DNA from: a virus
Strand: one strand, 5' to 3'
DNA length: 27,443 nt
Virus genome (UHGV): UHGV-1837213
Shown: one piece after another, positions 4,609 to 24,723 of the stretch
Layout of the letters: each line of letters begins with the position of its first letter
Numbering within the stretch: the stretch's first letter is position 1
Program-made: the position numbers and the translations under genes
Notes under the pieces: model-generated
Told to the model about the DNA's origin: nothing
Databases searched by the model: none
The model's input: only the letters and a program-made list of their open reading frames with translations

Positions 4609-4682
4609 TGATGGAAAACTCCTTTTTCCGTTAATTCTACGCATTCATTGCGCTAATAGTAAGTATATACTTACTAATTGAG

Positions 4683-5066
4683 TTAATTCAATAAATAGCC
4701 AGCAAATTCAACAGGAATGCCTGCTTCTATTAATGCCCCATCATTTTTGGGATAAATGATTGGCATCGCCATCGGTCGTACAAGTCGAAAATAAACACCA
4801 CCAGATTCCGTTTCCTCTACTGGAAACATCTCAATGATTTTATTGGCTTTCTCAACCGTCGTAGTAATTGACGAACCACGCACAATTATTGTGAATGATT
4901 CGTGGTAAAAGCCCTGTAGCTCATGATCGATGCTGATACCGGTATTTGGGTTAATAAGCAGGACGCCAGATTTCACATTGGCAGGCAAGTAGTGACAGAA
5001 AATGTCAGTCCCGACCGTGCCAATCTTTGCCTTCTGCATCAAACTTGCAAACGCTTCAATAAACAC
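4683..5066 (-). CDS. Hypothetical tail/neck-associated protein (ORF track 4683..5189; start probably GTG at 5066)
   Basis: The long ORF overlaps the upstream gene by more than 120 nt. A GTG at 5066 lies just after the upstream stop and is preceded by GAGAGG. Confidence 0.5.
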   Translation of the reverse strand: MFIEAFASLMQKAKIGTVGTDIFCHYLPANVKSGVLLINPNTGISIDHELQGFYHESFTIIVRGSSITTTVEKANKIIEMFPVEETESGGVYFRLVRPMAMPIIYPKNDGALIEAGIPVEFAGYLLN

Positions 5067-5067
5067 A

Positions 5068-5541
5068 TTAACCTCTCGTAAATCCGGCTTTTCTGGCAGC
5101 CTCAAGAATCGCTTCTGAGAACTGCTTCTCGCTAATTTCCACCGCTCTTTCCAGAAAGTGTGGCCCAACACGGGGTTTAACACCGGCAATTGGTGGGTTT
5201 GTCACGTTCTTCATTCGAGAAAGATAACCGAGTCGGTATTTACCCAGCTCCATGTACTTAGCATAGTCACCGACTTCTACGCCCGGATGCCCCTGACGTG
5301 GTTTTGCTCCAGACACAGAAAGCTCAATGCGCAGCCCTGAATAACCTTCTTTAATCACCCTGGCAAAGATGGCTGTCTCCAGAGATCCGGTTTCCAGCGG
5401 GGCCATTGCACGGCTGAGACGCTCAACCAAACGCGCCAGCTTTTCCATGTCCCGAATAAGATATCGCTTAAATGCTTTCTGGCTGTTATTGAGTCTATTC
5501 CCCGCACGTTTGAACTGATGCGCATCATATTTCAGACCCAT
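5068..5541 (-). CDS. Hypothetical head-tail joining/neck protein, 157 aa
   Basis: ORF in the late operon between the head and tail genes; its start overlaps the upstream gene end. Basic protein. Confidence 0.55.
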   Translation of the reverse strand: MGLKYDAHQFKRAGNRLNNSQKAFKRYLIRDMEKLARLVERLSRAMAPLETGSLETAIFARVIKEGYSGLRIELSVSGAKPRQGHPGVEVGDYAKYMELGKYRLGYLSRMKNVTNPPIAGVKPRVGPHFLERAVEISEKQFSEAILEAARKAGFTRG

Positions 5542-5876
5542 ATATTCGCCCCCACTTCAAGATGCCCAGGTCTTCCTCGTAGCCCCCAGCGGCGATGAAC
5601 ACTGGACACCTTTAATTTTTGACCTTCAAGGATCAGCACATCATCAAGTTGTACAGCCGCTTCTAAAGGGACAACTAACACAGCATCAAACAGCTCCAGA
5701 CTCGCCTTACCACGACTACCAGAGCTATCAGCACGAACTGACGATTTCTCATTACTCTGTTCGAACTTAACCACGCCGACATTCGTCTTCCTGACGAATT
5801 GTAATTGCGCCTCGCCGTATACGTTCTTTGCGCCAAAGCGGTAGATCGCAATTTCTGTTTGCCATGAAATATTCAT
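5532..5876 (-). CDS. Hypothetical head-tail connector protein (ORF track 5532..5972; start probably ATG at 5876)
   Basis: The internal ATG at 5876 is preceded by GGAGAG at good spacing. The longer version would overlap the upstream gene. Confidence 0.55.
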   Translation of the reverse strand: MNISWQTEIAIYRFGAKNVYGEAQLQFVRKTNVGVVKFEQSNEKSSVRADSSGSRGKASLELFDAVLVVPLEAAVQLDDVLILEGQKLKVSSVHRRWGLRGRPGHLEVGANIWV

Positions 5877-5955
5877 GCTCTCTCCCTGTTGTTGTCGGTC
5901 GCTCTCATTACTGGCCAAAAACCCTTTCGACCAAAAGTAAATAATGCGACTGGCG

Positions 5956-6789
5956 TTACGCACGGCGAACAATCATACGGTTGTTGATGTAACTGACCAG
6001 CAAGCGCCAGGTACTACGAGCCACATGCACGTTTGCAGCTTTACCGGTACGGTACATGTTGGTTGTTTCACCGATGGACTCTGACAAAATGCCATCCTCT
6101 CGTGCTGCGGCTACATCATTGCCATTTGCGATCTCACACGCTTCGTTGACAACGGCAAGCATCAACGCTTCTTTGAAGTAGTCAGGGAACTCTTCAAACT
6201 TCTCCTGCGTCATCTTTTCCCAATCGACTAAATCATGCCGGTACGCTCCATCTGCTCCCCACGGAATGTCATACACATTCAGCATATTTTGAGGGCGATC
6301 GTATCGGTCAAAGTCGATACGTAGAATTTTGCGGATTGAGAACGGTAAAGTTTTAATTCGTCTGGTAGCCTCAATGAGACGCTTGCGCATTAAGCCTTCA
6401 CCATCCGACAGCAAAGTGTCCCCATTCAGCATATCGATCGCCTGCATTTGAGCATCAGCGACAGTTGCAAACGACTGTTCTGGTATCGACAGTTCAAAAC
6501 TATTCAGCAGAACATACATTTGCCGCTCTTCATGCGTCAGACCCGATGCAACAGCCTTCACAATGACGTACCGCAGATCTCGCTCTTTCTCAGAGAGCTG
6601 GTTATATTCAGCCGACACGACAACCGGAATCGACATTTGACCGCTGGTAATTTCTAGCGGCTCGCCATCAACGAGAATAGCCCCGGTGCTGTCCTTTACT
6701 GTGTAGGTAGCAGATTCGATATCCAGCACGTTGAAGGCAAATGAAAGGGAAACAGCTTCACCGCTACGATACGAGTCGATCTGCGCCAT
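5956..6789 (-). CDS. Hypothetical structural protein, 277 aa
   Basis: Long ORF in the late operon, translationally coupled to the neighbouring genes. Confidence 0.6.
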   Translation of the reverse strand: MAQIDSYRSGEAVSLSFAFNVLDIESATYTVKDSTGAILVDGEPLEITSGQMSIPVVVSAEYNQLSEKERDLRYVIVKAVASGLTHEERQMYVLLNSFELSIPEQSFATVADAQMQAIDMLNGDTLLSDGEGLMRKRLIEATRRIKTLPFSIRKILRIDFDRYDRPQNMLNVYDIPWGADGAYRHDLVDWEKMTQEKFEEFPDYFKEALMLAVVNEACEIANGNDVAAAREDGILSESIGETTNMYRTGKAANVHVARSTWRLLVSYINNRMIVRRA

Positions 6790-7223
6790 TACTCACCGCC
6801 TTGTGCTTTCAGGATGCCTTCAATCATCTCGACAATTCCTTTCGCTTTGACACCAACCTGATTACCAATCACACGTAGACCGGCAATGCCTTCATTGTCT
6901 GCAATTGACTCCAACTCTTCTCGTGTGAAAGTCTGGATCTGTTTGGCCGGTTCATCTGGTGTCCCACGTTTCATTGGCACAATGTCAGGTGCTGCTGGCT
7001 CGGTAATCAGGTCTGCGGTCAACTCGCCACGATCACTGTATGCGGCAGACGGAGAAACATTTTTGCCCTCGACTGTTGATGCTCGCATTGAGGCACAAAT
7101 CCTTTGCTGATCGATAAAAGGCAACTCCGCTACGGACACCCCGTTCTCGAACTGAACGCCGCACAACATTCCCGAATAACCGGAAAATTGCGGTTCTAAT
7201 AAAACAATTTTTGCTGGTTTCAT
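6789..7223 (-). CDS. Hypothetical structural protein, 144 aa
   Basis: ORF in the late operon; its stop overlaps the start of the downstream gene. Confidence 0.55.
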   Translation of the reverse strand: MKPAKIVLLEPQFSGYSGMLCGVQFENGVSVAELPFIDQQRICASMRASTVEGKNVSPSAAYSDRGELTADLITEPAAPDIVPMKRGTPDEPAKQIQTFTREELESIADNEGIAGLRVIGNQVGVKAKGIVEMIEGILKAQGGE

Positions 7224-7267
7224 AACGCATTCTCTCTACATGGGCGGCTTTCGCCGCCCAATATTGA

Positions 7268-8188
7268 TTATTCCTGTGCAGCAGTGACTTCTACGGTCGC
7301 TGTCGCTTTGTGGCTACCATCTTGGGTAGTAACCTCGATTGTGGCAGTACCAGCCGCAACACCAGTTACAACACCGGTTTCGCTGTCAACCGTTGCAAAC
7401 TCGGTATTTTTAGATTCCCAGGTAACGGTTTTATTTGTGGCTCCTGCCGGCTCGACATTTGCTGTCAGCTGAACAGTTTTGTTTGCCTCAACGGTTGTGC
7501 TATTTGGGTCGATTTCGACGCCGGTAACAGCCACAACAGGCGCAGTTACTTCCACCGTTGCAGTTGCCTTTTTGCTACCATCTTGGGAAACGATCTCAAT
7601 CGTCGCAGTGCCAACTTCTACACCAGTTACGTTCCCGCTCTGGTCTACCGTTGCCTTATCTTCATTTTTGGAAGACCAGGTAACAGCCTTATTCGTCGCA
7701 TTTGACGGCTGAACATTCGCTTTCAGACTGACTGATTTTCCTTTCTCAACAGAGGTTGAGTCTGGCGTTACCGTTACGGATTGAACGGCTACCGGATTTA
7801 CGGTGACTTCCACTGAAGCGGAAAGCTGGGTTTCCTGATCAGTTGCAGTAATTTTTACTTTGCCTGGGGCTACGCCAGTTACTAATCCAGTGCCGTTAAC
7901 GATTGCAATTTGGTCATTGGCTGACTTCCAGGTGAATGAACTGGCACTCTTACCCATACTAATACCTGCACTAAGTTGAACAGTTTTCCCAACCAAAACT
8001 GACGGTGAAGCCGGGGTTATGTTTACGGATTGGGAGAGGGGAACCGCCTGCAAACAAGCAGATAGCTGACTTTGTTGCCGCTCGGTTAAAGGTTCATCGG
8101 AGATAGAATTGGTAAATCCGGCACGGCACATATGCCCCGTAAAATCCGAAAATGCCTCTTCCGTAATCTTCATCTTTTGTTCTGGCAT
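7268..8188 (-). CDS. Ig-like (Big_2-type) repeat protein, probable head decoration or accessory surface protein
   Basis: Three tandem Ig-like repeats in the protein (each ending ...ATATVEVTA). GGAG RBS. Located immediately after the major capsid gene and a terminator hairpin. Confidence 0.75.
   Translation of the reverse strand: MPEQKMKITEEAFSDFTGHMCRAGFTNSISDEPLTERQQSQLSACLQAVPLSQSVNITPASPSVLVGKTVQLSAGISMGKSASSFTWKSANDQIAIVNGTGLVTGVAPGKVKITATDQETQLSASVEVTVNPVAVQSVTVTPDSTSVEKGKSVSLKANVQPSNATNKAVTWSSKNEDKATVDQSGNVTGVEVGTATIEIVSQDGSKKATATVEVTAPVVAVTGVEIDPNSTTVEANKTVQLTANVEPAGATNKTVTWESKNTEFATVDSETGVVTGVAAGTATIEVTTQDGSHKATATVEVTAAQE
7290..8020 (-). repeat. Intragenic tandem DNA repeats (about 270 bp each) encoding the Ig-like domains
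   Basis: Repeated nucleotide blocks are visible, e.g. ...ctaccatcttggg...gcagtaccag/gccaacttctacaccagttac..., matching the repeated protein domains. Confidence 0.6.
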
Positions 8189-8202
8189 TTCTCGCTCCTA
8201 CA

Positions 8203-8232
8203 AAAAGGGTGGGCGTATAGCCCACCCTTTAA
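8203..8232 (-). terminator. Rho-independent terminator/attenuator downstream of the major capsid gene
   Basis: GC-rich stem AAGGGTGGGC/GCCCACCCTT followed on the minus strand by TTTTTGTAGG. Confidence 0.6.
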
Positions 8233-8261
8233 CATAGATAACTGCTTATCTACTACACTGA

Positions 8262-9137
8262 TTAAATTTTTACATTGGTCAGTGCAGCGATAGCCTTATC
8301 GTGCTTATTCGCCAGAGAGCAGTACCACTTCACACGGGTACGTACTGCGTCTTTGTTCTGTACAGTACCAATGTTTTCAACAACGATACCTGCGTTGTCG
8401 CCGCCATACAGACCAGTAACGCCGTTCTCTTCTGACAGATGCAGGCAGTAGATGCTTGCTTTGCCAGAATCGGTCGGGATGAAGTCGTTGATAATGAACG
8501 GAACGCCGTTATGACACAGCATCGGACGACCGAAGTTCTCCATCATGATTTCAGACGGGCCTACGTTTACTGTACGCAGCAGCGCACGGTAAGCACGCAG
8601 GTGCTCTGAACGCATCATGATGCAGTCAGCACCAAGATCTTTCACCGCATCGACCAGTTCGTCGAACATGGAGAAAGTCATAGATGCACCTGCGATGTCG
8701 ATCTTCTGATCTTCATGCATCAGGCGTGGAATGCCGTCGAACGCTTTGCTGTTAGAGCTTGAGTCGCCCAAAATCAGGTTGCGACGGAACGCACGAGCCA
8801 GACCTTTAACTTTCTGGCGAACCTGAATTGCCAGTTGGTTATTAGTGTCTGACATGGTGGTTGCCAGGAATTTATCAACGTCTACGTCACCAGCCAGAAT
8901 ACGCAGTTTCGCTACATGTTCTGTGAAGGTTGCTGCACCTTCAGTGATGGTGTCGTTTACATCAATAAACGTGGCTTCGCTCAGAGTAGCCTCACGGTTG
9001 TACAGATATGCCTTTGAAGTAATTTTCATAAAAGGCAGGATGGCGAACAGGTCATCGCGATCGATAATAGTTTCGATCACACCCTGCTCAAGTTCGTTGT
9101 TAGACAGCTTTTCAGCTTCATCACGCAGTAATGGCAT
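8262..9137 (-). CDS. Major capsid protein, 291 aa
   Basis: Position after the scaffold gene and before the terminator and decoration gene; RBS AAGGGA; size and composition typical. Confidence 0.75.
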   Translation of the reverse strand: MPLLRDEAEKLSNNELEQGVIETIIDRDDLFAILPFMKITSKAYLYNREATLSEATFIDVNDTITEGAATFTEHVAKLRILAGDVDVDKFLATTMSDTNNQLAIQVRQKVKGLARAFRRNLILGDSSSNSKAFDGIPRLMHEDQKIDIAGASMTFSMFDELVDAVKDLGADCIMMRSEHLRAYRALLRTVNVGPSEIMMENFGRPMLCHNGVPFIINDFIPTDSGKASIYCLHLSEENGVTGLYGGDNAGIVVENIGTVQNKDAVRTRVKWYCSLANKHDKAIAALTNVKI

Positions 9138-9162
9138 CTATCAATTCCCTTTGATTTAGATG

Positions 9163-10050
9163 TTACTTAAGTCCAATTTTCCCCAGACCGGAGGCCAACT
9201 TATCCATAGTCGACTTGTTCTTCGGTCGGGATATTGTGTAGGTCGATTTGGAATGTGAGCCTACACCCTGCTTGGCTTCGCTACGCATCAATGCGTCAGC
9301 TTCCGGATCTGCCCGCACAATGCGTTCAATCGCGGATTCAAACGGCAACGGCTTACCTTCACCGTCAACCAGAACAGCTCGTTCTTTATGACCTGCCGGT
9401 TTGTCATAACCCACTACGCTACCGTCTTCACCCACTTCAAAATGAGAACCGTAGATCACGCGGGCTTTTGCCGGGGTCATCAGAACTTTGTCACGTAGGA
9501 AGAGAGAGTTACTGAAGGAAGCGCCCACGGTCATCTCGACTAATTGAGATTTCAGTGATGCGTTTTCACTTTCCAGTGCTGTATAACGTTCGTCACGCTG
9601 TGCCAGCTCTGCCTGGTGTGCTTCGATCATCTGTTTTTTAACAGCATCGAACTCACCACGACGCTCCAGTTCAGCTTGCTCCGCCTCACGACGTGCATTT
9701 TCTGCGGCCTGTTCAGCTTCTAAAAGCTGGCGAGCACGCGCCGGGTCGATATCACCGTACTGAGCAAGCTGATCGGCCAATGTGCGCTCTTTCTCTTTGC
9801 GCTTCATGTTCTCCTTCAGCAGTTCAGCACCAGCTTTCTTGGTTTTACGAAGTTCGGCCAGTAACTCTTCCTGAGTCATGCCAGCGTATTCGTCATCGCC
9901 CTTCGGCTGCTCTTTTTGTTCACCCTGTTTGTCAGGATCTTGTGTGCTCTGCTCATTATCAGCAGCTACACCGCCAGCGCCTCCACGCTCATGCGCTTCA
10001 GCGACATCCATCAGACCACGACGGGCCAAAAGCATTTGCCACAGATTCAT
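9163..10050 (-). CDS. Capsid scaffolding protein, 295 aa
   Basis: Highly charged, helical, coiled-coil-like sequence (AELERRGEFDAVKKQMIEAHQAELAQRDERY) between the portal and major capsid genes. Confidence 0.7.
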   Translation of the reverse strand: MNLWQMLLARRGLMDVAEAHERGGAGGVAADNEQSTQDPDKQGEQKEQPKGDDEYAGMTQEELLAELRKTKKAGAELLKENMKRKEKERTLADQLAQYGDIDPARARQLLEAEQAAENARREAEQAELERRGEFDAVKKQMIEAHQAELAQRDERYTALESENASLKSQLVEMTVGASFSNSLFLRDKVLMTPAKARVIYGSHFEVGEDGSVVGYDKPAGHKERAVLVDGEGKPLPFESAIERIVRADPEADALMRSEAKQGVGSHSKSTYTISRPKNKSTMDKLASGLGKIGLK

Positions 10051-10071
10051 AAAAATTCCTTTTGTTACTTA

Positions 10072-11646
10072 TCACTCGTTCTCTTGAGTAGATGAGTCCC
10101 CATTCCCTCGGGGTTGATCTTGCCCGCTTTCTTGGGCTGCACCACGATCATAAGTAAGTACTGACTTATTTTCAAGGGTATTTAGATCATTTTTTGGCGG
10201 AAAATTCAAGAGATCTTTATCAAATTCCTTTTTCATCGCCTCAGTAATGTTCGGGAAAATCTTCTCAATAAGCATTTCCATCTGGTGACGACGTACAGAG
10301 TCCGGTGCCTGAAGTAATGACAGTTTCTCGGCAACAGAAAATTCATCAGTAAGGCCACGAATATCGAAACTTTCTGGATACGCAATTAAAGAGTGGTCTT
10401 CGTCCAGATCTACCCCCATCCATTTCGCAACCAGTAGCATGATTTGGCGTTCAGCCCTTTCCAGACGCTCTGCTTTTGTGACAAGCAAGCTATTTACACG
10501 CTGGAAGTCATACATTTTTGCGGCACCAGATGAATTATCGATTCCCTGTGCGTTGTCCTGCTTCGTTCGCTCACCAGCTACACCAACTGAATGGTAGATT
10601 TCGTTAATCACCGTCTTAATCGTAGTGATGATCATCTGAGCTTGTTTCGGGTCTGGTGACAGATAAAACGGCTGGTTTCCACCTTCAGAATCGTAGGTGA
10701 AGACTCGCTTTGTGCCCATTTCAAGCACTTTAGTGTGGTTTTCATCACCAGGTAAAAGCGACTGTACCGGTATAGCCAACTGGCTAAATGTCTGATCCTG
10801 AATAATGGCATCAAGGTTTGACAGATAGTTTGCAACCGCACGATCAAGATAAGCGATATCATCGATCAACGATGGGCTGAAATACGGTGATTCACTTTCT
10901 CCAATACAATCAACAGGAAACACAGGAACTACGCCGAGATTATGCTCACCGCTATCCTCTAAAATAACTTTTGCCTGACGGCGACCTGCTCCACCAGCGC
11001 CCTTCTTCACTTCCTCACGGAACAGATACCACTCGTTTTGTGTCCACAGACGATAACGTTGGTATTCCTGACCTGTAGAAGTAAAAGGATCTGCGTCATC
11101 ACGAGCGACTTCCACAATTAACGCCCACAACATATTCCCGTCGTCGTCCCATGCCACATCCAGCATTTGCTGAGGTGAAATCCAGTAGGCGTAGGCGCGA
11201 GCATCTTTCTTTTTCTCGTCAGCTACTGACTCAACATCACCACTCATCGTGCTATCGACAACAACCCATATGCGACCGTAAATAGACGACTGCAAATCAA
11301 TGGCGGCCATAAATGAGTCAATAGAGGCATTCTGGCGAGTCGCACGTTTCCAGAAATTGCGGATCTGCTCTGGTGCCTCTTCGATATTTCTATGAATGTC
11401 TTCTTTAAAGAGATATTTGTTGATGAGGTTTACCACCTCACGAGTGTGGTTGAAGCGATAGGCACGCTCAACACGCTCCTTAAACTCCTGATCTCCCTCT
11501 TTAAAGTAACGAAAGATATTGTCTGTAAACCAACCACGCCCGCCAGCGTAAGTGCTGGCGAGGAAGTCCCAATGTTCTTTTTTCTTTTCGTATTCCGGGT
11601 GGCGTCGCGCCACCAGATCCTTAATTTGTTTGTCGTTCAATTCCAT
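10072..11646 (-). CDS. Portal protein, 524 aa
   Basis: Large ORF immediately downstream of the large terminase, with an acidic C-terminal tail; conserved position. Confidence 0.8.
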   Translation of the reverse strand: MELNDKQIKDLVARRHPEYEKKKEHWDFLASTYAGGRGWFTDNIFRYFKEGDQEFKERVERAYRFNHTREVVNLINKYLFKEDIHRNIEEAPEQIRNFWKRATRQNASIDSFMAAIDLQSSIYGRIWVVVDSTMSGDVESVADEKKKDARAYAYWISPQQMLDVAWDDDGNMLWALIVEVARDDADPFTSTGQEYQRYRLWTQNEWYLFREEVKKGAGGAGRRQAKVILEDSGEHNLGVVPVFPVDCIGESESPYFSPSLIDDIAYLDRAVANYLSNLDAIIQDQTFSQLAIPVQSLLPGDENHTKVLEMGTKRVFTYDSEGGNQPFYLSPDPKQAQMIITTIKTVINEIYHSVGVAGERTKQDNAQGIDNSSGAAKMYDFQRVNSLLVTKAERLERAERQIMLLVAKWMGVDLDEDHSLIAYPESFDIRGLTDEFSVAEKLSLLQAPDSVRRHQMEMLIEKIFPNITEAMKKEFDKDLLNFPPKNDLNTLENKSVLTYDRGAAQESGQDQPRGNGDSSTQENE

Positions 11647-11672
11647 TTGAATAACCTTAGATAATTACTTAC

Positions 11673-17195: not shown

Positions 17196-17241
17196 TTATA
17201 ATAGCCAAATAACATACAAAAGGCACTAAGGAAAGAGGTTT

Positions 17242-18801: not shown

Positions 18802-18803
18802 TT

Positions 18804-19082: not shown

Positions 19083-19108
19083 TCACGCTATCAATTAGGG
19101 AGACAAAG

Positions 19109-19573
19109 ATGAAGTCTCCCATACTGTTCACTTTCTGTTCTAAAACTATCATGAAATACTCGCTTCTCCCTCTACTAACGTTACCAGTGTTGATGCTTAC
19201 CGCGTGCCAATCACGCCCAATATCAATCCATGACGCCAAACCAGCACCGCAGGCCAAAGTGTTCAAGTATCAAAGCGCAGCGCCAGCTACGTTGGTGGTA
19301 ATGAGAGACACAGGTTTTGTAGGAGCTGGATGTGATGCTTCCATTTTCATCAACGGCGAAACTGTCGCAAAACTGGCTACAGGCGAAAAAGCGACTTTCC
19401 ATTTAAATGCCGGAGAATTAATTGTGGGTGCATCTCTTGAAGGTGCAGGTTTATGTGCTCTAAACCCCGCTCGTCAAGAGCGAGAAACGACTCTGAAGAA
19501 TGGAGACACAAAAGCGTTCAGGGTGTTCACCAGCAATTCTGGTGACATCGACATTCTGCCAACAACTCTGTGA
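19109..19573 (+). CDS. Putative lipoprotein, 154 aa
   Basis: AGGGAG RBS. Signal peptide with lipobox-like LTAC (Cys as predicted lipidation site). An alternative start at 19151 (MKYSLLPLLTLPVLMLTAC) would give a canonical short lipoprotein signal. Confidence 0.65.
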   Translation: MKSPILFTFCSKTIMKYSLLPLLTLPVLMLTACQSRPISIHDAKPAPQAKVFKYQSAAPATLVVMRDTGFVGAGCDASIFINGETVAKLATGEKATFHLNAGELIVGASLEGAGLCALNPARQERETTLKNGDTKAFRVFTSNSGDIDILPTTL

Positions 19574-19577
19574 TGAC

Positions 19578-20102
19578 ATGACAACCAAAGATATTACCTA
19601 CGGTATCCAAGCTGAACTCTGGCCGCGAGATTACACTAACGTTGAAAAACTACTGATGTTCTGGCGCAGAGAACAAATTCCTGTAAGGGTCACTCTCGAA
19701 GATGGCCAGGCGTTTTGCATGTACGTTTATGGCCTCATGCCATCTCGTAACAAAGTTGACCTTTGCCCAGCCCCTTTTGACAAAGAAAATCGTATAAGGC
19801 TCCCACTTGAACGCATTAGTACAATTGAATCAGGTGTGGTTGACAGTATCGCTCACGATTTCAAAGGTCGACTAACAGTTCACCCTGATTATGTCGATAA
19901 TCGGCCATCACGCCGCGATTTTTTTGCAATTTGCAACCAAGCCTACAAAGCAAACAAATCTATAAGGGTGTACATGGCGGATGGCCGTGAAATTGAGGGG
20001 GTGTCAGCAGGCGCAGATGCTTGTCAGGTTACACTACGTGTCGAGAACGGTAGAAAAATAGTTGTTTTGTTCGATTGGGTTGAACGAATTTTGCCTTTTT
20101 GA
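19578..20102 (+). CDS. Hypothetical protein (ORF track 19500..20102; start probably ATG at 19578)
   Basis: The longer ORF overlaps the lipoprotein gene by 74 nt. The ATG at 19578 follows the lipoprotein stop. Confidence 0.5.
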   Translation: MTTKDITYGIQAELWPRDYTNVEKLLMFWRREQIPVRVTLEDGQAFCMYVYGLMPSRNKVDLCPAPFDKENRIRLPLERISTIESGVVDSIAHDFKGRLTVHPDYVDNRPSRRDFFAICNQAYKANKSIRVYMADGREIEGVSAGADACQVTLRVENGRKIVVLFDWVERILPF

Positions 20103-20105
20103 GTT

Positions 20106-20414
20106 ATGAAATCGATATTGTTACCACCATTATTTTTACTTTGCTCAGTTGCGGCAAATGCAATGGACTATAAGCCTGTCATTCAGTCGCTGATGAATGA
20201 CGTGTGCTCAACGTCTCAGAATGTATCAGTTTGCATGTATCAATTTTCGGCAGCCGTAAAAGCAGGAAAAGCGATAGGTGAGAATGTGGAACTGTGTAAG
20301 AAAGTGGCAAATGAAGAACGGGCAATGTTGGATTGCGAATCTAGCGAGTCATCGGCACAGTTCGTTGATGCGCTATTTGACACCAATCGTAAGGCTGTAG
20401 AGTCTGTTCAATAA
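20106..20414 (+). CDS. Small secreted (probably periplasmic) Cys-containing protein, 102 aa
   Basis: N-terminal signal peptide MKSILLPPLFLLCSVAANA; followed by a strong terminator. Confidence 0.6.
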   Translation: MKSILLPPLFLLCSVAANAMDYKPVIQSLMNDVCSTSQNVSVCMYQFSAAVKAGKAIGENVELCKKVANEERAMLDCESSESSAQFVDALFDTNRKAVESVQ

Positions 20415-20425
20415 ATCTATAAGGT

Positions 20426-20456
20426 TAATAACCGGCTAAGTCCGGTTATTATTTTT
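20426..20456 (+). terminator. Rho-independent terminator
   Basis: Stem TAATAACCGG/CCGGTTATTA with loop CTAAGT, then TTTTT. Confidence 0.7.
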
Positions 20457-20604
20457 CACATCACTTCTTTATATCTATAAATAAAATAATCTAAATATAT
20501 ATAAGGTCGAAAGCCGGAATCGATTATTTATTTAGGGAACACCTTCGACGATCTCGCTTTTATTTCTAGGACTTTCATCCCTGCAAAAAATTTTAAAAAA
20601 ACAC

Positions 20605-20632
20605 TTGCAATCTTTTTTCGCGTATCGATAAT
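20605..20632 (+). promoter_or_regulatory. Sigma70-type promoter for the AT-rich cassette
   Basis: TTGCAA, 16-nt spacer, GATAAT, preceded by an A/T tract; located about 65 nt upstream of the ATG at 20698. Confidence 0.55.
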
Positions 20633-20697
20633 TGAACTCGTCGAAAGCGAAGACGCTAACGACAATAAATTTTAAATTTACATAAGGAAAAATTATC

Positions 20698-21348
20698 ATG
20701 GCTAACATTATCATTTCTAAAAAATCCATCATTGAAGCTGCTTCCATTGTATCCGATGAACTGCGCGAAAAAGCAGATCTGGCAACTCAAACATATAACG
20801 AACATTATAAAAATGGTACGCACACTAAAGCAGACAAAGCAAATATGCAAGCTGCGACCACTAAACTTGCTTACTTCATCAACAACGTCGTAAACGCAGT
20901 AGAAGACGAAAAATTATGCTCTGTTTTCTACTATGCGATTAAAGCAAGCAAACAAGCGCCAGAAGTATTTTTTCGTGATGCAATGACTAATAGTTATTCT
21001 CTGGAAAAACTGGTTTATCTGGTTAAATCAATTAAATCTGGTAAATGCGTTTATTCCATCGCTGATATGTCTGGATCTCGTGTATTCGCTTTAATCGATA
21101 TGATTAACGACGAGATCGACACGTTCACCAATGGCGCTGTTTTCGATTTAATGAATGAAGCTAAAAAAGCGTGTGAAATTAAATTGGACGCTGGCTATAC
21201 TCAAGCCAACCAGTTGATCAATCTTTGCGAACGTCTTGGACTTGTTGAAAAAGTCAAAGGAGCTGGGAGTGCGAAAGCTGGTACTCAGCAATATCGCTTC
21301 ATTAAAAATGATTTCTACAATTATTTAGCTGATGCTTTCAAAGCGTAA
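20698..21348 (+). CDS. Hypothetical protein, 216 aa, in low-GC cassette
   Basis: AAGGAAAAA RBS. Codon usage is AT-rich with third-position A/T preference, distinct from the flanking genes. Confidence 0.7.
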   Translation: MANIIISKKSIIEAASIVSDELREKADLATQTYNEHYKNGTHTKADKANMQAATTKLAYFINNVVNAVEDEKLCSVFYYAIKASKQAPEVFFRDAMTNSYSLEKLVYLVKSIKSGKCVYSIADMSGSRVFALIDMINDEIDTFTNGAVFDLMNEAKKACEIKLDAGYTQANQLINLCERLGLVEKVKGAGSAKAGTQQYRFIKNDFYNYLADAFKA

Positions 21349-21360
21349 TTAATGGAATCA

Positions 21361-21379
21361 AGCGCCCACTATGGGCGCT
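21361..21379 (+). repeat. 19-bp hairpin AGCGCCCACTATGGGCGCT (copy 1, intergenic)
   Basis: Perfect 8-bp stem with 3-nt loop. An identical copy at about 21857-21875 forms the cassette terminator. Confidence 0.6.
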
Positions 21380-21396
21380 TTAAAGGAGCTTTGAAA

Positions 21397-21600
21397 ATGG
21401 TCAGCTATGACAAGATCCGCGCGGAATATCGCGCAAAGTATCGCGCTTATAAACTAGAATTAATCGATGATTTAATCGCGCAACGCGACCAATTAAATTT
21501 TACGTTTTCTGATTTGCTTAACAGCAAGCGAGATTGCAAGCGCAAACGTGAATACTTACGTTTAAGCGCATTAATCGGAAAACTTCAAAATTCTATTTAA
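21397..21600 (+). CDS. Hypothetical small basic protein (ORF track 21352..21600; start probably ATG at 21397)
   Basis: The ATG at 21397 is preceded by AAAGGAG. The longer ORF would read through the hairpin. Confidence 0.5.
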   Translation: MVSYDKIRAEYRAKYRAYKLELIDDLIAQRDQLNFTFSDLLNSKRDCKRKREYLRLSALIGKLQNSI

Positions 21601-21620
21601 TTTTTTTAAGGAGCTTAATC

Positions 21621-21851
21621 ATGTTTGTTCTTATCGCTGGCGTTAACGTCCATAACGAATATTATGTTAATCGCATCGCTGGGATCGCTGGTTACGCTGG
21701 GCGCGCAGTCGAGTTTATCGATGAAACAACGCGTAAAATTGATTTATTGAGCGACCAGGAGCGAAAAAAAGCAGACGTGAACGACGCTGATATATTTTTA
21801 ATGTTAAAAGCGTTTGTAGAAATGGGATTTAAAATCAGTTTACACAAATAA
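21621..21851 (+). CDS. Hypothetical small protein, 76 aa
   Basis: Strong TAAGGAG RBS; followed immediately by a terminator. Confidence 0.6.
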   Translation: MFVLIAGVNVHNEYYVNRIAGIAGYAGRAVEFIDETTRKIDLLSDQERKKADVNDADIFLMLKAFVEMGFKISLHK

Positions 21852-21856
21852 AATCG

Positions 21857-21884
21857 AGCGCCCACTATGGGCGCTTTTTTCGTT
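21857..21884 (+). terminator. Rho-independent terminator (hairpin copy 2 plus T-run)
   Basis: AGCGCCCACTATGGGCGCT followed by TTTTTTCGTTT. Confidence 0.75.
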
Positions 21885-21901
21885 TCCAATACTTCCACAA
21901 T

Positions 21902-21930
21902 AACGCGCCATTGATGGCGCGTTTTTTATT
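21902..21930 (+). terminator. Second tandem terminator hairpin
   Basis: Stem AACGCGCCAT/ATGGCGCGTT followed by TTTTTTATT. Confidence 0.6.
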
Positions 21931-22342
21931 GTCTTTAACTCACTCCAACAACATAAAAATAAGCGCCAAAATAACGCCATAAACGCGCTTTTATATCCTT
22001 ACCAGTACATACCCATTACTTAACACATTAACGCGCTTAAAACGCGTTATATTGCGCTATAGCGTATGGTTAATCATTGGCTTTTAGTCTTGCTATGTGA
22101 TCCGCGTTTATTTGTCGGCGCGGATCGGCATTTTGTTTTGTTCCGTATCCGCTCGCGTATTATGTGCGCGTGATTTTTCACATAATCACACCACTTAATC
22201 ACGTATGTGATTATGCTACGAAAGAAATCTGGATGTCTCAGGCGACGAAAGTCATCATAATTTTCCCCGCTCGCCTGTCCGACAACCGCTGGTTGGATTC
22301 CACCAGCTTCCCGATGTTTTTTTCTACATAAAGGCGAATGCA

Positions 22343-22456
22343 GCCGTTTCCCGAAAAAATCCTGGCCGTTTCCCGTCGGCTCATGAATACGTTCCTCGCC
22401 GTTTCTGAAAATTTCCCTGCGGCAGCTGGTGGCTATAGAGAAAGGGCCGTTTCTGG
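22343..22456 (+). repeat. Iteron-like direct repeats (4 copies of GCCGTTTC(C/T)(C/T)G)
   Basis: Copies start near 22343, 22365, 22398 and 22446, all in the same orientation. Confidence 0.6.
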
Positions 22457-22468
22457 CCCTCTTCTCAG

Positions 22469-22951
22469 TTACACGCCATCAAGGATGTGGATGCGGTTGC
22501 TTGCGTATACATTCAGCATAAAGTTAGCGCAAAACAGTTTCCATGTATCAACGCCAGCGGTATACGTAATGTTTTTGCATTTAATCGCATTGTTGGCGAT
22601 CCGCATCCCCTGCGATACTGCTTCATCGTCGGAAAATTTGAACGACGATTGAGTTTTAATCCAGACAGAAATCTGCGTAGCGAACTCAATCAGCTTGGAC
22701 TGGCAGAATCGCCCGGAGCGCACCGGAAAGACGAACGTTCCGAATCCAGAATTTACCACATATGCTTTCTCAAATACCCGCGAGTAACGACGATTGCCAA
22801 TGATGTCGCGTGCAATAATGCATTTTTCTTGTGCTGACAGTTCTACCGTCTCATTGTCGCGCCATGCACCAAGTACTCGTTTTTCAATGTCAGAGAACGT
22901 TACAGCGATATTGCCATGTGCGGGTGCGTTTACAGTAGCGATAAAATTCAT
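22469..22951 (-). CDS. Hypothetical protein, 160 aa
   Basis: AAGGA RBS 8 nt upstream of the ATG; preceded by the conserved promoter/leader element. Confidence 0.6.
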   Translation of the reverse strand: MNFIATVNAPAHGNIAVTFSDIEKRVLGAWRDNETVELSAQEKCIIARDIIGNRRYSRVFEKAYVVNSGFGTFVFPVRSGRFCQSKLIEFATQISVWIKTQSSFKFSDDEAVSQGMRIANNAIKCKNITYTAGVDTWKLFCANFMLNVYASNRIHILDGV

Positions 22952-22972
22952 GATTAATTCCTTATCGTAAAT

Positions 22973-23005
22973 AACAAATTGTTTTCTTGTTGGTGTTAAT
23001 TATCG
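22973..23005 (-). promoter_or_regulatory. Conserved promoter/leader element, copy A
   Basis: Minus-sense CGATAATTAACACCAACAAGAAAACAATTTGTT with a -10-like GATAAT, and TTGACG about 15-16 nt upstream. Confidence 0.55.
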
Positions 23006-23124
23006 TTGTACGAATAAGGCGTCAAAGTGGAAAGTTGCGGTAGCCGGACGGGAACAGGTGGGTTTGTCGGTTGCCTGGAGGTAAGAGGTTGGTGTTTTTA
23101 GCCTGCGGGAAACAGGATGGTCAT

Positions 23125-23152
23125 TTAAGGCCACCAGCATTGGTGGCCTTAA
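23125..23152 (-). terminator. Hairpin terminator containing a Chi octamer (minus orientation)
   Basis: TTAAGGCCACCA-GCAT-TGGTGGCCTTAA, 3 nt after the stop of the 93-aa gene; contains CCACCAGC. Confidence 0.5.
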
Positions 23153-23155
23153 TCT

Positions 23156-23437
23156 TTAGTGGAGCAGACCGATGTCGATGGTATCCCCTGAATCATCCAC
23201 ACGGATCATCAGCATGGCAAAGGCGTTTAGTGGATAGCTTGCGTGCCATTCAGGGAAGCGGTCATCTCGCATGAAGTCGGCAATGTCGTAAACGCATCCC
23301 TCAAAGTGGAAGAATCGCGTGCTTACCTGCTCGTCATAATCCACATGATCCATTTCTTGCTGTTCTGTTTCCGGCAAGTCCAGCCATGATTCAAGAAATA
23401 CATTTTGTGCTTTAGGGGTAATGGTGAAATCAGTCAT
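23156..23437 (-). CDS. Small strongly acidic protein, 93 aa (ORF track 23156..23569; ATG at 23437)
   Basis: The conserved element lies inside the longer ORF. The ATG at 23437 is preceded by TGAGGA. About 19 Asp/Glu against 5 Lys/Arg. Confidence 0.6.
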   Translation of the reverse strand: MTDFTITPKAQNVFLESWLDLPETEQQEMDHVDYDEQVSTRFFHFEGCVYDIADFMRDDRFPEWHASYPLNAFAMLMIRVDDSGDTIDIGLLH

Positions 23438-23457
23438 GAGCATATCCTCACTGCGTA

Positions 23458-23489
23458 AACATGTTGTTTTCTTGTTGGTGTAATTATCG
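23458..23489 (-). promoter_or_regulatory. Conserved promoter/leader element, copy B
   Basis: Minus-sense CGATAATTACACCAACAAGAAAACAACATGTT. Confidence 0.55.
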
Positions 23490-23595
23490 CAGTGTAGATA
23501 AGGCATAAAAGAAGTTAATACAGGCTGAATACACAAGAAAGGTTCTGGAAGTTGATAGCCAGGTTTCAAACTAACCTTCGGTTATTAAAAGTCAT

Positions 23596-23623
23596 TTAAG
23601 ACCACCAATGCTGGTGGCCTTAA
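23596..23623 (-). terminator. Hairpin terminator containing a Chi octamer (plus orientation)
   Basis: TTAAGACCACCA-ATGC-TGGTGGCCTTAA. Same stem as the 23125 copy but with the loop inverted; contains GCTGGTGG. Confidence 0.5.
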
Positions 23624-23626
23624 TAA

Positions 23627-23770
23627 TTATCGCCCGATTACGCTAAGGATCTTTTCCTCAACTGATTTGTTGTTGCGACTAAACTGCCTTGCGTATCTGA
23701 TGACAGAAGAGGCGTTTTGCTTTCTGACCATCTCGGCTCTTTCCTTCAGGCGTTTCTTGAAATCGCCCAT
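23627..23770 (-). CDS. Possible small basic protein, 47 aa (below the ORF-track size cutoff)
   Basis: ATG 2 nt after the stop of the 124-aa gene. Peptide MGDFKKRLKERAEMVRKQNASSVIRYARQFSRNNKSVEEKILSVIGR. Stop immediately before the hairpin at 23596. Weak RBS. Confidence 0.3.
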   Translation of the reverse strand: MGDFKKRLKERAEMVRKQNASSVIRYARQFSRNNKSVEEKILSVIGR

Positions 23771-23772
23771 AT

Positions 23773-24147
23773 TTACCACCAGGCGCAGAAGGTCAGTCTG
23801 TTATTGTGAAAGTCGTGGTTCTTAATCAGATCTTCCACAAGCTCTTTCAACTCCCCCACATCATGCCAGTAACCTTCATCGTACTCCTGACTGCCGAAGA
23901 AAAAACCTTCCCGGGTAGGCAAGTACTCTTCGCAATTACTTTCGTTTATGTGCATCAAATGAGCCTTCAGAAAACAAATGTCATTCATCGTTAATTCTAA
24001 AAGCTCACAATTTTCGACTTCACCTACGTTGCGCTCCATCCACCCAACGAGCGCATTGAACTTACGGAAGTAAGCAACCTGCTTTCTGGATGCCTCGTTA
24101 TTCAGATCGTTTTTAGGCTGTGTCTCGATATAGATATCAAGTCCCAT
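23773..24147 (-). CDS. Small strongly acidic protein, 124 aa (ORF track 23773..24189; ATG at 24147)
   Basis: AAGGAA RBS 7 nt upstream of the ATG at 24147; acidic composition. Confidence 0.6.
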   Translation of the reverse strand: MGLDIYIETQPKNDLNNEASRKQVAYFRKFNALVGWMERNVGEVENCELLELTMNDICFLKAHLMHINESNCEEYLPTREGFFFGSQEYDEGYWHDVGELKELVEDLIKNHDFHNNRLTFCAWW

Positions 24148-24204
24148 GATGGTTTCCTTATTAAGTTGCTTCAGTGAAATCATTTTCACAAATCAGATAA
24201 GGCA

Positions 24205-24225
24205 GAAAACAAATTGTTATCTGGC
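24205..24225. promoter_or_regulatory. Degenerate or inverted copy of the conserved element core (copy C)
   Basis: AGAAAACAAATTGTTATCTGG, containing the palindrome AACAA-A-TTGTT. Confidence 0.35.
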
Positions 24226-24231
24226 TTAATA

Positions 24232-24256
24232 AAATGGCGCGGTTTACGCGCCATTT
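24232..24256 (-). terminator. Rho-independent terminator after the 131-aa gene
   Basis: Stem AAATGGCGCG/CGCGCCATTT followed on the minus strand by TTTTATT. Confidence 0.6.
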
Positions 24257-24264
24257 AAAGAGGA

Positions 24265-24660
24265 TTAAGCGAATACGCTTTCAGGGATTAAGGTGTCGGC
24301 AGGAATGCCAGAGGTAATGCGCAGGCCGTACTGACCAATCCAGGTAGTGTTGGTATTCAGGTTGGAGGCGAATACGGTGTTAACCATATTCATCATGGTT
24401 TCAAACACCTCTTCATCAACCTGGCGGAAGTAGCTCTCGATTTTCAGCAGCAGCGGGTCAGTTGCATCGAGAATGGACTGGTATTGAGTCGCGTACTCGC
24501 CGTCGGAGTCATCACCTTTACGCACGATCGTACTGGCCTGTACTTCGGCGCCAGTTTCGGTGTTGTACGTAACAACGGTGATTTTTGCCACATTCTTACC
24601 TTCGGCGGTTTCAGAGGCATAGTAAACATCAACTGTCAGTTTTTCGCGTTTAATGGTCAT
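24265..24660 (-). CDS. Hypothetical acidic protein, 131 aa (ORF track 24265..24726; ATG at 24660)
   Basis: GGAGA RBS upstream of the ATG at 24660. A sigma70-like promoter TTGTAA-17-TAGAAT overlaps the palindrome GTAAGTATGTACTTAC (about 24704-24719). Confidence 0.6.
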   Translation of the reverse strand: MTIKREKLTVDVYYASETAEGKNVAKITVVTYNTETGAEVQASTIVRKGDDSDGEYATQYQSILDATDPLLLKIESYFRQVDEEVFETMMNMVNTVFASNLNTNTTWIGQYGLRITSGIPADTLIPESVFA

Positions 24661-24723
24661 TTCACTCTCCGTAGTGTATTGGTTATTTTTATATTCTATG
24701 ATCGTAAGTATGTACTTACAATA

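Follow-up and report, generated by a model that had tools for sequence, protein, structure and literature searches.

Recurrent TARGTA/TACYTA palindromes in an SSU5-like phage-plasmid as putative dispersed operators of a prophage repressor

The window analysed here, which is the whole 27,443-nucleotide stretch of UHGV virus genome UHGV-1837213, belongs to an SSU5-like phage-plasmid from E. coli/Shigella and carries a recurrent palindrome in which the hexamers TARGTA and TACYTA are separated by exactly 2 or 6 bases (N2 or N6 form). Computation establishes that this motif exists, that its geometry is fixed and where it lies (between genes and at promoters), together with its conservation and distribution. 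We consider the palindromes to be probably (roughly 55%) the dispersed operators of one global prophage repressor, as in the C1 system of phage P1; that a protein binds them, that binding represses and which protein binds are points that we infer.

The palindrome spans 14 bp in the N2 form and 18 bp in the N6 form, with conserved outer bases. A 109-kb Shigella plasmid that is near-identical to the window contains 15 copies of the N2 form and 11 of the N6 form, where chance would yield approximately 0.17 TARGT/ACYTA pairs at spacing 4 and 0.18 at spacing 8. Inverted TARGT/ACYTA pairs occur at these two spacings only, apart from a few nested pairs at 0 or 1, and N2 and N6 are the sole two spacings across the whole family (spacing-4/spacing-8 counts of 17/13 in SSU5, 21/13 in Klebsiella and 7/17 in Cronobacter), with about 25-30 copies per 105-110-kb genome. 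The Shigella plasmid is 83% coding, and 27 of its 28 non-overlapping sites are intergenic (p = 3e-20). In the window, the TAAGTA hexamer is present 17 times against 8.0 expected, a count reached by 0 of 100 shuffles, and the paired arrangements are likewise far above chance: 3 against 0.00 for TAAGTA-N0-8-TACTTA, 4 against 0.06 for TARGT-N4-ACYTA, and 2 against 0.05 for TARGT-N8-ACYTA.

The original prediction had listed four TAAGTA/TACTTA palindromes with spacers of 1, 2, 2 and 6 bases and had proposed a regulator shared among promoters. All four sequences exist, and the coordinates given for sites 2 and 4 are exact, while the 18-mer of site 1, AGTAAGTATATACTTACT, is located at 4658-4675 and not at 4656-4673. 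Site 3 is not a TAAGTA copy; it reads TAAGTtACTTA (13699-13709), with arms of 5 bases and a left hexamer of TAAGTT, and belongs to a different element, a 58-bp hairpin repeat. Spacers of 2 and 6 bases represent a fixed two-state feature rather than noise. A motif scan of the window adds three copies that had been missed, at 8235-8252, 10151-10168 and 11658-11675 (Table 1). The proposal of a shared regulator gains support from a motif that is genome-wide, almost exclusively intergenic and conserved across genera, and that overlaps promoter-like hexamer pairs facing the downstream genes.

Table 1. Palindrome copies and the inverted repeat upstream of the terminase genes in the window
Feature	Position	Sequence	Location	Promoter-like elements
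Site 1	4657-4676	TAGTAAGTATATACTTACTA, perfect 20-bp palindrome	between head/tail gene (4683-5066, -) and major tail gene (3862-4608, -)	overlaps TTGAAT (4691-4686)-18-TATACT (4667-4662), - strand
Site 1 core	4660-4673	TAAGTATATACTTA = TAAGTA-TA-TACTTA, N2 form		
Weak copy	8235-8252	TAGATAACTGCTTATCTA, 14/18 positions match	between major capsid gene (8262-9137, -) and next gene; directly upstream of terminator-like hairpin (8227-8211, -)	none predicted
Copy	10151-10168	TAAGTAAGTACTGACTTA, 17/18 match	inside 3' end of portal gene (10072-11646, -)	fills spacer of TTGAAA (10175-10170)-17-TATGAT (10152-10147)
Copy	11658-11675	TAGATAATTACTTACCTA, 16/18 match	26-base gap between large terminase and portal genes; takes in terminase stop codon	
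Inverted repeat	13674-13734	CCTGCTTCCGTATATAT...ATATATACAGAAGCAGG	upstream of small terminase gene	
Site 2	17178-17195	TAAGTA-ATCACT-TACTTA, N6 form	divergent region between ParB-like operon (16479-17159, -) and helicase operon (17242-18801, +)	ends 1 base before perfect TATAAT (17197-17202) facing helicase gene
Site 4	24704-24719 (core 24705-24718)	GTAAGTATGTACTTAC	upstream of 131-aa gene without assigned function (24265-24660, -); directly downstream of terminator-like hairpin	overlaps TTGTAA (24721-24716)-17-TAGAAT (24698-24693), - strand

Promoter matches overlap three of the window sites, and the arrangements are conserved. At site 1, the palindrome and the -35 hexamer are kept in SSU5, Klebsiella and IMG/VR loci, and the downstream leader has diverged; site 2 is kept upstream of the helicase-facing TATAAT in SSU5, Klebsiella and other loci, and site 4 in SSU5 (93170) and Klebsiella (79772), where the terminator-promoter context is the same. 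The copy inside the portal gene occupies the spacer of an internal promoter that serves scaffold and capsid genes and that matches the consensus at 10 of 12 positions and is the best promoter match within bases 1-14000, and this arrangement is found in every lineage examined. In relatives, the copy between the terminase and portal genes corresponds to a perfect or near-perfect palindrome (Klebsiella type, GATAAGTAAGTACTTACCTATC; Cronobacter type, GATAGGTGGTTAACTACCTATC), and the weak copy has its counterparts at 34829 in the Shigella plasmid and 5472 in SSU5.

The mean sigma-70 matrix score near the sites is 6.1 bits toward the downstream gene, compared with 4.1 bits on the antisense strand (Wilcoxon p = 5e-4) and 1.9 bits at random positions, with 29 of 56 sites above the 95th percentile of random positions; approximately half are no better than random positions as sigma-70 promoters. 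Measured from the palindrome centre, the start of the -10 hexamer ranges from -4 to +22, so that different sites overlie the -10, the spacer or the -35, and this variable register is typical of an operator and not of a position-locked activator box. Several of these promoters are near consensus (e.g., TTGAAA-17-TATGAT) and would fire in the lysogen unless repressed. The genes that the sites face are lytic, both early and late, with roles in replication, nucleotide metabolism, recombination, head, tail and lysis, and the motif recurs at equivalent positions in relatives from Salmonella, Klebsiella, Cronobacter and Providencia whose flanks diverge. Upstream of plasmid-maintenance and lysogen-expressed genes the sites are missing: among the lysogen-expressed Cyrano genes, parA and repA, only the XRE gene described below has its own site in the preceding 300 bases; one site lies 235 bases upstream of hicA (CYRAN_51) and adjoins a divergent UvsY-like gene.

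In the operator reading, an element-encoded dimeric DNA-binding protein would recognise the TARGTA/TACYTA pair, would occupy the sites in the plasmid (lysogenic) state and block RNA polymerase at many points at once, and would also limit its own synthesis, so that its loss or inactivation would free all promoters together. The most likely binder, as judged from sequence, is an XRE-type helix-turn-helix repressor of 126-129 aa (CYRAN_45 in phage Cyrano), the gene of which is adjacent to the integrase gene outside the window and which matches Pfam HTH_19 at 19.7 bits, below the curated cut-off of 30.2. The XRE gene has the promoter TTTACA-16-TAATAT, followed by CG and a nested GTAAG(C/T)ACTTACC at about +1, an arrangement shared by the E. 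coli, Klebsiella and Salmonella-type elements, among which repressor identity is only 56-70%. This nested copy may be a signature of autoregulation; in the Cronobacter immunity region, no clean copy of the motif of that lineage was seen. The XRE and integrase module is carried by ~865 plasmids, whose taxonomic range coincides with that of the element, and is transcribed at 10 times background in the Cyrano lysogen (PMC9928086). SSU5, which has been described as virulent (PMC5427195), retains the sites despite missing the module. Additionally, the inner bases of the motif differ by lineage (AGTACT; G(C/T)TAAC in Cronobacter; TTTAAA in the Providencia type), and the recognition helix of the XRE protein shifts with them (GYKNANNLSLIKSGK, GYENANNLSNIKTGR and GYSSHNNISMLKSGK), which suggests that site specificity is element-encoded; this covariation comprises three lineages only, among which every protein has diverged, and to that extent counts against the operator reading.

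The layout resembles known systems of dispersed repression. P1 is the archetypal phage-plasmid, and its C1 operators are, like the palindromes here, numerous and scattered over a ~100-kb plasmid-prophage, at lytic and repressor-control promoters, with at least 15 distinct sites annotated in P1 (AF234172). As for C1, the motif copies here lie at lytic promoters genome-wide and the repressor promoter carries a putative operator. However, the C1 operators are asymmetric 17-mers and C1 is a 283-aa protein unrelated to XRE, whereas the motif here is symmetric; moreover, P1 late genes use a separate activator (Lpa), whereas one symmetric motif serves early and late genes here. A tblastn search for a C1 homologue in the window, the Shigella plasmid, SSU5 and Cyrano yielded nothing better than E = 5, and the likeness is therefore one of working principle and not of family membership. 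In mycobacteriophage L5 (the gp71 'stoperators') and Streptomyces phage phiC31 (conserved inverted repeats), the whole prophage is silenced through 20-30 repressor sites in short intergenic gaps of early and late operons; the phiC31 sites are palindromic, and those of L5, which are asymmetric and orientation-dependent, act as blocks to elongation, not initiation. Neither system is related to the present one in hosts, proteins or sequences. Operators of the 434/P22 type share with this motif a palindrome with conserved outer bases and a small XRE-type binder (a candidate here), but the lambdoid operators, which are unrelated in sequence, form clusters in two immunity regions, whereas the present sites are dispersed.

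Several observations count against the operator reading. One rigid dimer is hard to reconcile with two spacings that differ by 4 bp. No promoter is expected at the copy at 8235-8252, between a stop codon and a terminator, which might act as an L5-like roadblock. A TTG -35 is in register at only ~20% of sites, and this scarcity, together with the random-like scores of half of the sites, would fit activator-dependent promoters too. Finally, an 88-aa winged-helix protein encoded at 13757-14023, directly upstream of the terminase genes, is an equally available candidate binder, which weighs against the assignment to the XRE protein.

A possible, clearly less favoured, explanation is that the palindrome is the box of a lytic-cycle activator that replaces the -35 contact, as Lpa does at the -22 box of P1 late promoters. 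The P1 promoters contain AAGT(G/T)ACTT, centred ~9 bases before the -10, and thus share the AAGT/ACTT half-site with the T-AAGT-A...T-ACTT-A found here; in both, the palindrome lies just upstream of the -10 and the -35 is often absent. The right arm of the N6 form overlaps a TATnAT-like hexamer, which places the palindrome centre near -20. The 88-aa protein, as candidate activator, is present in all lineages including SSU5, which grows lytically with every site kept and no XRE module, and its recognition helix is invariant, as is the outer half-site of the motif. The structure predicted for it is a winged-helix fold with the DNA-binding domain of LexA as its nearest match, which is weak (E >= 0.14) and derives from a single-sequence model with a pLDDT of 72.5, and the N6 form (spacing 8) has the geometry of a LexA box, GT-N8-AC. 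An activator could also use a site at +1 of the repressor promoter to shut off the repressor in lytic growth. However, the unfixed distance to the -10, the promoters already near consensus at -35 and -10, and the same box before early and late genes, which would leave no temporal order, argue against an activator, and owing to the symmetry of the flanks the '-10' signal may in part be the palindrome itself, which counts against the operator reading too. The sites do not fit a P1 Lpa-dependent late promoter in the strict sense: the -22 box has an arm spacing of 1 base, a fixed 4-base gap to a TAnnnT -10 and ~11 sites before late genes only, whereas the sites here have spacings of 4 or 8, a -10 distance of -4 to +22, and about 25-30 copies before all lytic genes. 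In the four sequences searched for C1, tblastn revealed no Lpa homologue either (best E 0.9), and the scanned window proteins all fall in PHROGs other than phrog_1704, that of Lpa.

A more speculative combination, which we regard as rather unlikely, is that two element proteins read one half-site, the XRE protein on the 14-bp and nested forms and the 88-aa protein on the N8 spacing, which would create a competition switch at every lytic promoter. The 88-aa protein would then act, in the manner of P1 Lpa, as the master activator of lytic promoters that are weak without it, and SOS induction would proceed through a LexA-controlled integrase transcript running antisense into the converging repressor gene. 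The motif is not itself an SOS box: no copy fits the LexA consensus CTGT-N8-ACAG, with which the N8 form shares GT-N8-AC only, and the single CTGT-N8-ACAG in the window is inside a gene, at 24969.

Binding by a conserved Enterobacterales transcription factor of the host is very improbable. The RcsAB box TAAGAATATTCCTA and the NarL heptamers TACYYMT resemble the half-site, and this likeness to NarL/RcsB-type sites is what speaks for a host factor, with the many host genera of the element sharing these regulators; however, the spacing and orientation are unlike those consensus sequences, and the inner half of the motif differs between element lineages in related hosts. Moreover, the ideal 18-mer is at or below chance across 185,579 species-representative genomes (4 matches in 596 Gb), and hence is not a common chromosomal site; one of these matches is on a 92-kb Kluyvera contig, which is probably such an element.

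Equally little probability attaches to partition or global-silencer sites for the two ParB-N-domain proteins encoded beside site 2 (15811-17159). Dispersed palindromes have precedents in the 12 KorB operators on RK2 and the dispersed SopB centromeres on N15, and both proteins (Pfam E = 3e-13 and 1.5e-8) are kept in all lineages. However, 25-30 sites far exceed known centromere sets, no helix-turn-helix was detected in the two proteins beyond ParB_N, a separate ParA-type partition module exists elsewhere in the element, and the ParB-like proteins are transcribed with lytic genes from a motif-bearing promoter.

RNA hairpins (for termination, processing or stability) or selfish REP/MITE-like repeats are the most improbable reading, since the palindromes, which often lie in short gaps 1-18 bases past a stop codon and fold better than shuffled controls (z -1.8 to -4.1), form only weak, AU-rich hairpins (-3.7 to -7.5 kcal/mol), are in many cases upstream of the predicted -10 and thus not transcribed from the adjacent promoter, lack conserved pairing in the inner 6 bases of the N6 form, shared flanks and target duplications, and hold matching positions across genera. 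An intrinsic terminator or structured RNA was likewise rejected: there is no G+C-rich stem with a U-tract, the terminator scan omits the sites, and the window has no Rfam match.

SSU5-like phage-plasmids are common in clinical Enterobacterales. The group takes in S. Typhi pHCM2, Y. pestis plasmids related to pMT1, and hundreds of plasmids from Klebsiella, E. coli and Enterobacter, some with resistance genes. Literature searches found no account of how their ~100 kb of lytic genes are silenced or induced. An operator motif, about 25-30 putative regulated promoters and a named candidate repressor would make this question experimentally addressable, and the motif provides a sequence signature for annotating promoters and typing immunity groups in the family.

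The sequence upstream of the small terminase gene was rejected as a member of the motif family; it is a 58-bp imperfect inverted repeat with TAAGTtACTTA at its centre. As RNA, it folds at -30.5 kcal/mol (z = -9.8), and it is present in 3 copies in the Shigella plasmid, 3 in SSU5 and 2 in the Klebsiella plasmid. Its centre, AAGT(T/G)ACTT, is that of the P1 late-promoter -22 box (literally AAGTTACTT in the window) and is the only P1-type box there (13700-13708), followed by a poor hexamer. The SSU5 record ends at the centre of this repeat.

The four palindromes originally reported, built on the half-site TAAGTA, are all present in the window, and shuffles rule out chance or an AT-rich background as their source: TAAGTA occurs 17 times versus 8.0 expected, and TAAGTA-N0-8-TACTTA three times versus 0.00 expected. 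Sites 2 and 4 lie exactly where they were reported, whereas site 1 has the reported sequence at different coordinates; its 16-mer is found again at site 4 with one mismatch. Site 3 has arms of only 5 bases and is the centre of a far longer inverted repeat; as a member of a family of 58-bp hairpin repeats, it is rejected as a copy of the motif. Scans with degenerate models reveal six motif copies in the window, with fewer than 0.2 expected.

Positions of the motif sites and other features in the window and, where named, in other records (L numbers denote retrieved DNA)
Feature	Position	Strand	Remark
Site 1, upstream of major tail gene	4658-4675		18-mer; perfect palindrome 4657-4676
Site 2, helicase/ParB promoter region	17178-17195
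Site 3, upstream of terminase	13699-13709		centre of 58-bp repeat
Site 4	24704-24719
Motif copies, degenerate scans	4660, 8235, 10151, 11658, 17178, 24705
Copy after capsid gene	8235-8252		between capsid stop codon and terminator
Promoter TTGAAT-18-TATACT	4691-4662		on site 1
Promoter TTGAAA-17-TATGAT	10175-10147		best match in bases 1-14000
Promoter TTGTAA-17-TAGAAT	24721-24693		on site 4
Perfect TATAAT	17197-17202		begins just past site 2, which ends 1 base before
Major tail leader hairpin	4639-4654		between site 1 and ribosome-binding site
58-bp imperfect inverted repeat	13674-13734		upstream of small terminase gene
88-aa protein gene	13757-14023	-	directly upstream of terminase genes
ParB-N operon	14033-17159	-
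FljA homologue	19578-20102	+	helicase operon
Degenerate tandem duplication	22973-23630		~480 bp
Hairpins TTAAGGCCACCAGCATTGGTGGCCTTAA	23125-23152, 23596-23623		28 bp
Gene between hairpins	23156-23569
G+T-rich stretch	26200-26660		ORF-free
TGGGTAATGGCG	26487, 26600		exact copies
XRE gene promoter	Cyrano immunity region, L009 32575-32826; Klebsiella plasmid 17340-17943
LexA box CTGTATAAGTAAACAG	L004 ~2330-2345; NZ_CP034066.1 107029-107044		29 bases upstream of integrase gene
LexA box CTGTTCATTTATACAG	L003 ~3811; record 58710		before UmuD/HumD-like gene

The window carries head and tail genes (tape measure, major tail, capsid, portal, terminase) on the minus strand and, beyond these, a ParB-like/ABC operon, a divergent helicase operon and small genes without assigned function. 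Across bases 13000-25500, identity is 97-99% to SSU5-group plasmids and phages of E. coli and Shigella and approximately 80% to Salmonella phage SSU5 and Klebsiella phage-plasmids; approximately 800 PLSDB plasmids match. Genome-wide tests were performed on the near-identical complete Shigella sonnei plasmid NZ_CP034066.1 (109,082 bp), which was assembled together with SSU5, most of phage Cyrano, which is carried by E. coli LF82, a Klebsiella plasmid, 100 kb of a Cronobacter plasmid and a Providencia plasmid.

With the exception of a few nested pairs at 0 or 1, inverted pairs of TARGT and ACYTA are almost confined to spacings of 4 and 8 bases (N4 and N8). This pattern is shared by the window, the elements from Shigella, SSU5, Klebsiella and Cronobacter, and those IMG/VR loci that were checked; in the Providencia plasmid, the same N8 peak stands over scattered single pairs at other spacings. 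The Shigella plasmid contains 15 N4 and 11 N8 pairs, with approximately 0.17-0.18 of each expected, and the corresponding counts are 17 and 13 in SSU5, 21 and 13 in Klebsiella, 7 and 17 in Cronobacter, and 2 and 5 in Providencia. No spacing peak is observed for the reversed orientation or for direct repeats of the half-sites. As hexamers, these pairs are TARGTA-N2-TACYTA and TARGTA-N6-TACYTA; thus, the spacers of 2 and 6 that had made a single binding mode appear uncertain are two legitimate states of one motif, and the spacer of 1 is something else. Many sites contain nested quarter-sites TAAG/CTTA, and the ideal Klebsiella site is an 18-20-bp perfect palindrome, (A)TAGGTAAGT/ACTTACCTA(T).

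The sites are almost entirely intergenic. Although 83% of the Shigella plasmid is coding, 37 of 39 matches with at most two mismatches lie outside annotated genes, as do 27 of the 28 non-overlapping sites (p = 3e-20); the sole genic site, at the 3' end of the portal gene, occupies the spacer of an internal promoter. Sites lie upstream of the gene after primase, the DnaB-like operon, ThyX, NrdA, SbcD-like, SSB, UvsY-like and CobS/DNA polymerase III genes, of the tRNA cluster, methyltransferase and holin, and of the tail fibre, minor tail, major tail, scaffold/capsid and portal genes. None is found before repA, parA or the toxin-antitoxin genes, nor before the genes listed as transcribed in the Cyrano lysogen (PMC9928086), bar the XRE gene and one site near hicA. 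The latter, although 235 bases upstream of hicA, is part of the divergent promoter of the UvsY-like gene, which leaves the XRE repressor gene as the one real exception.

Three of the matches from a promoter scan of the window fall on motif sites. A sigma-70 matrix built for this analysis was run on 56 sites drawn from three genomes. Toward the downstream gene, the best promoter that overlaps a site scores 6.1 bits, compared with 4.1 for the reverse direction (Wilcoxon p = 5e-4) and 1.9 at random positions, and 29 of the 56 sites exceed the random 95th percentile. About half of the sites therefore lie on credible sigma-70 promoters and the rest on weak promoters or none, for example the copy after the capsid gene. 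The -10 element starts between -4 and +22 from the palindrome centre, so the part of the promoter under a site can be the -10, the spacer or the -35. In the alignment of N8 forms the flanks are symmetric, A-rich on the left and T-rich on the right, and TTG is in register at only ~20% of sites.

The motif is present at matching positions in SSU5 (~82% nucleotide identity). Among the 80 IMG/VR loci listed, each taken around the large terminase gene, almost all those of the E. coli, Salmonella and Klebsiella types keep the helicase/ParB, terminase/portal, portal-internal and major-tail copies. At the major tail gene, the upstream palindrome is conserved together with a -35 of TTGAAT or TTGAAC, and the leader has diverged. 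A short hairpin in this leader differs in sequence between lineages and keeps the same shape (AGCGCAATGAATGCGT in the window, GGCACCGTGAAGGTGCT in SSU5, GTGTCGAAATGACAC in Klebsiella), which suggests that the 5' leader is structured and maintained by compensatory change. In lineages with a terminase 81-90% identical, the outer hexamers are kept and the inner six bases are changed, to TAGGTA-G(C/T)TAAC-TACCTA in the Cronobacter/Enterobacter sp. type and TAGGTA-TTTAAA-TACCTA in the Providencia type.

The favoured reading of these sequence data is that the motif would form a network of dispersed operators by which a prophage repressor silences lytic promoters. It is favoured because the register of the sites is variable, near-consensus promoters must stay off in a plasmid-borne prophage, lysogen-expressed genes are excluded, the repressor gene carries a copy at +1, and a virulent member, SSU5, is without the repressor module. 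The repressor is most probably CYRAN_45, accession WP_001282576.1, a 128-aa XRE-type helix-turn-helix protein (PHROG 8, E = 1e-11; Pfam HTH_19 below the curated cut-off) encoded outside the window, whose profile gives nothing significant in a sequence search against the PDB. Its gene, convergent with that of the integrase, is transcribed in the lysogen of Cyrano (PMC9928086); SSU5, which has been called virulent (PMC5427195), lacks CYRAN_41 to 46, the XRE gene among them. Homologues with an adjoining integrase are found in 865 plasmids, whose taxonomic profile matches that of the element. The XRE gene promoter is conserved across genera as TTTACA-16-TAATAT, CG and then GTAAG(C/T)ACTTACC, a nested motif copy at approximately +1, and the E. 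coli type has a second nested copy 61 bp upstream. The recognition helix, GYKN(A/P)NNLSLIK(S/K)G(K/R), is invariant among repressors only 56-70% identical, all with the AGTACT-type motif, and differs where the inner motif differs (GYENANNLSNIKTGR in Cronobacter, GYSSHNNISMLKSGK in Providencia); for these divergent lineages the XRE gene was studied through the Cronobacter and Providencia plasmids rather than the IMG/VR loci. Going beyond the sequence statistics, we infer the mechanistic steps: the XRE repressor, bound at dispersed sites, would silence lytic promoters and would limit its own promoter.

A good LexA box lies upstream of the integrase gene, outside the window, and the integrase transcript would run antisense into the overlapping, converging XRE repressor gene. 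The box points to a possible route of SOS induction, consistent with the 39-fold induction of Cyrano by ciprofloxacin. Another good LexA box, also outside the window, precedes a UmuD/HumD-like gene.

The main rival, that the motif is an activator or promoter-specificity box, is considered less likely; in its favour, annotated P1 late promoters contain AAGT(G/T)ACTT, the same half-site, many sites have no -35, and a winged-helix protein is universal in the family. This 88-aa protein (PHROG 900, function unknown) is present in every lineage including SSU5, at 55-100% identity, with an almost invariant helix, TTKQS(I/M)QFS(I/L)RALIKKG, and a variable wing. Modelled from its sequence alone (pLDDT 72.5), the protein is a winged helix; LexA DNA-binding domains match the model best, at Foldseek probabilities of 0.94-0.99 but E values of at least 0.14, and LexA, BlaI and DtxR DNA-binding domains are the closest to it. 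The protein is a candidate late regulator. A tblastn search of the window, the Shigella plasmid, SSU5 and Cyrano finds no homologue of Lpa, the P1 late-promoter activator, or of the P1 immunity repressor C1. The operator and activator readings are not exclusive, since one half-site could serve two proteins.

A host factor reading the motif is very improbable: the ideal 18-mer has four exact matches in 596 Gb of species-representative genomes, at or below chance, which argues that the putative factor is encoded by the element. Binding of the motif by ParB-like proteins is given equally little credence. The FljA-like protein is rejected as the binder, being absent from the Providencia plasmid and not found within the 21-kb TerL-centred loci of the retrieved L085-L090 lineages, all of which carry the motif. 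The N8 form has its GT-N8-AC geometry in common with LexA boxes, but the sites contain no CTGT-N8-ACAG and are not LexA boxes; an RNA hairpin is dismissed by weak folds, absent U-tracts and no Rfam match.

Dispersed repressor sites are a kind of system known from the C1 operators of P1; the L5 stoperators and the conserved inverted repeats of phiC31 are of the same kind. Full-text searches on SSU5 and phage-plasmid regulation return nothing on the motif or an immunity system of the SSU5 family, and those with the motif sequence return primer noise only. Neither the motif with its two-state geometry nor the proposed regulator appears to have been described.

The repeat around site 3, CCTGCTTCCGTATATAT...ATATATACAGAAGCAGG, folds as RNA at -30.5 kcal/mol (z = -9.8), and its centre, AAGT(T/G)ACTT, equals the -22 box of P1 late promoters. 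The Shigella plasmid has three copies (7.2, 40.3 and 70.8 kb), SSU5 likewise three and the Klebsiella plasmid two. The centre of the repeat is where the SSU5 record ends, and the Cyrano BLAST match stops at the Cyrano record end, at the same window position. The repeat may serve as a terminator, as a packaging or end site, or as a late promoter.

Several further features were observed. The full-length FljA homologue (Pfam PF03614, E = 1.5e-84) occurs in the E. coli, SSU5, Klebsiella and Cronobacter elements; FljA is the phase-1 flagellin repressor, and its family consists of mRNA-binding translational repressors. The homologue may let the element alter host flagellin expression. The operon with two ParB-N-domain proteins, common to all lineages, is distinct from the element's ParA partition module, which lies elsewhere, and, per the annotation of the near-identical Shigella plasmid, also contains an ABC-type ATPase and unnamed genes. 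Searches of the window return no tandem repeats and no Rfam families. The degenerate duplication comprises three repeat families spaced 471-485 bases apart, and each copy is closed by a TTAAGGCCACCAGCATTGGTGGCCTTAA hairpin, the two hairpins enclosing a gene. The G+T-rich stretch (GC skew +0.27, AT skew -0.34), in which sequences nearly like TGGGTAATGGCG lie close to its exact copies, may represent either a non-coding RNA or a group of binding repeats.
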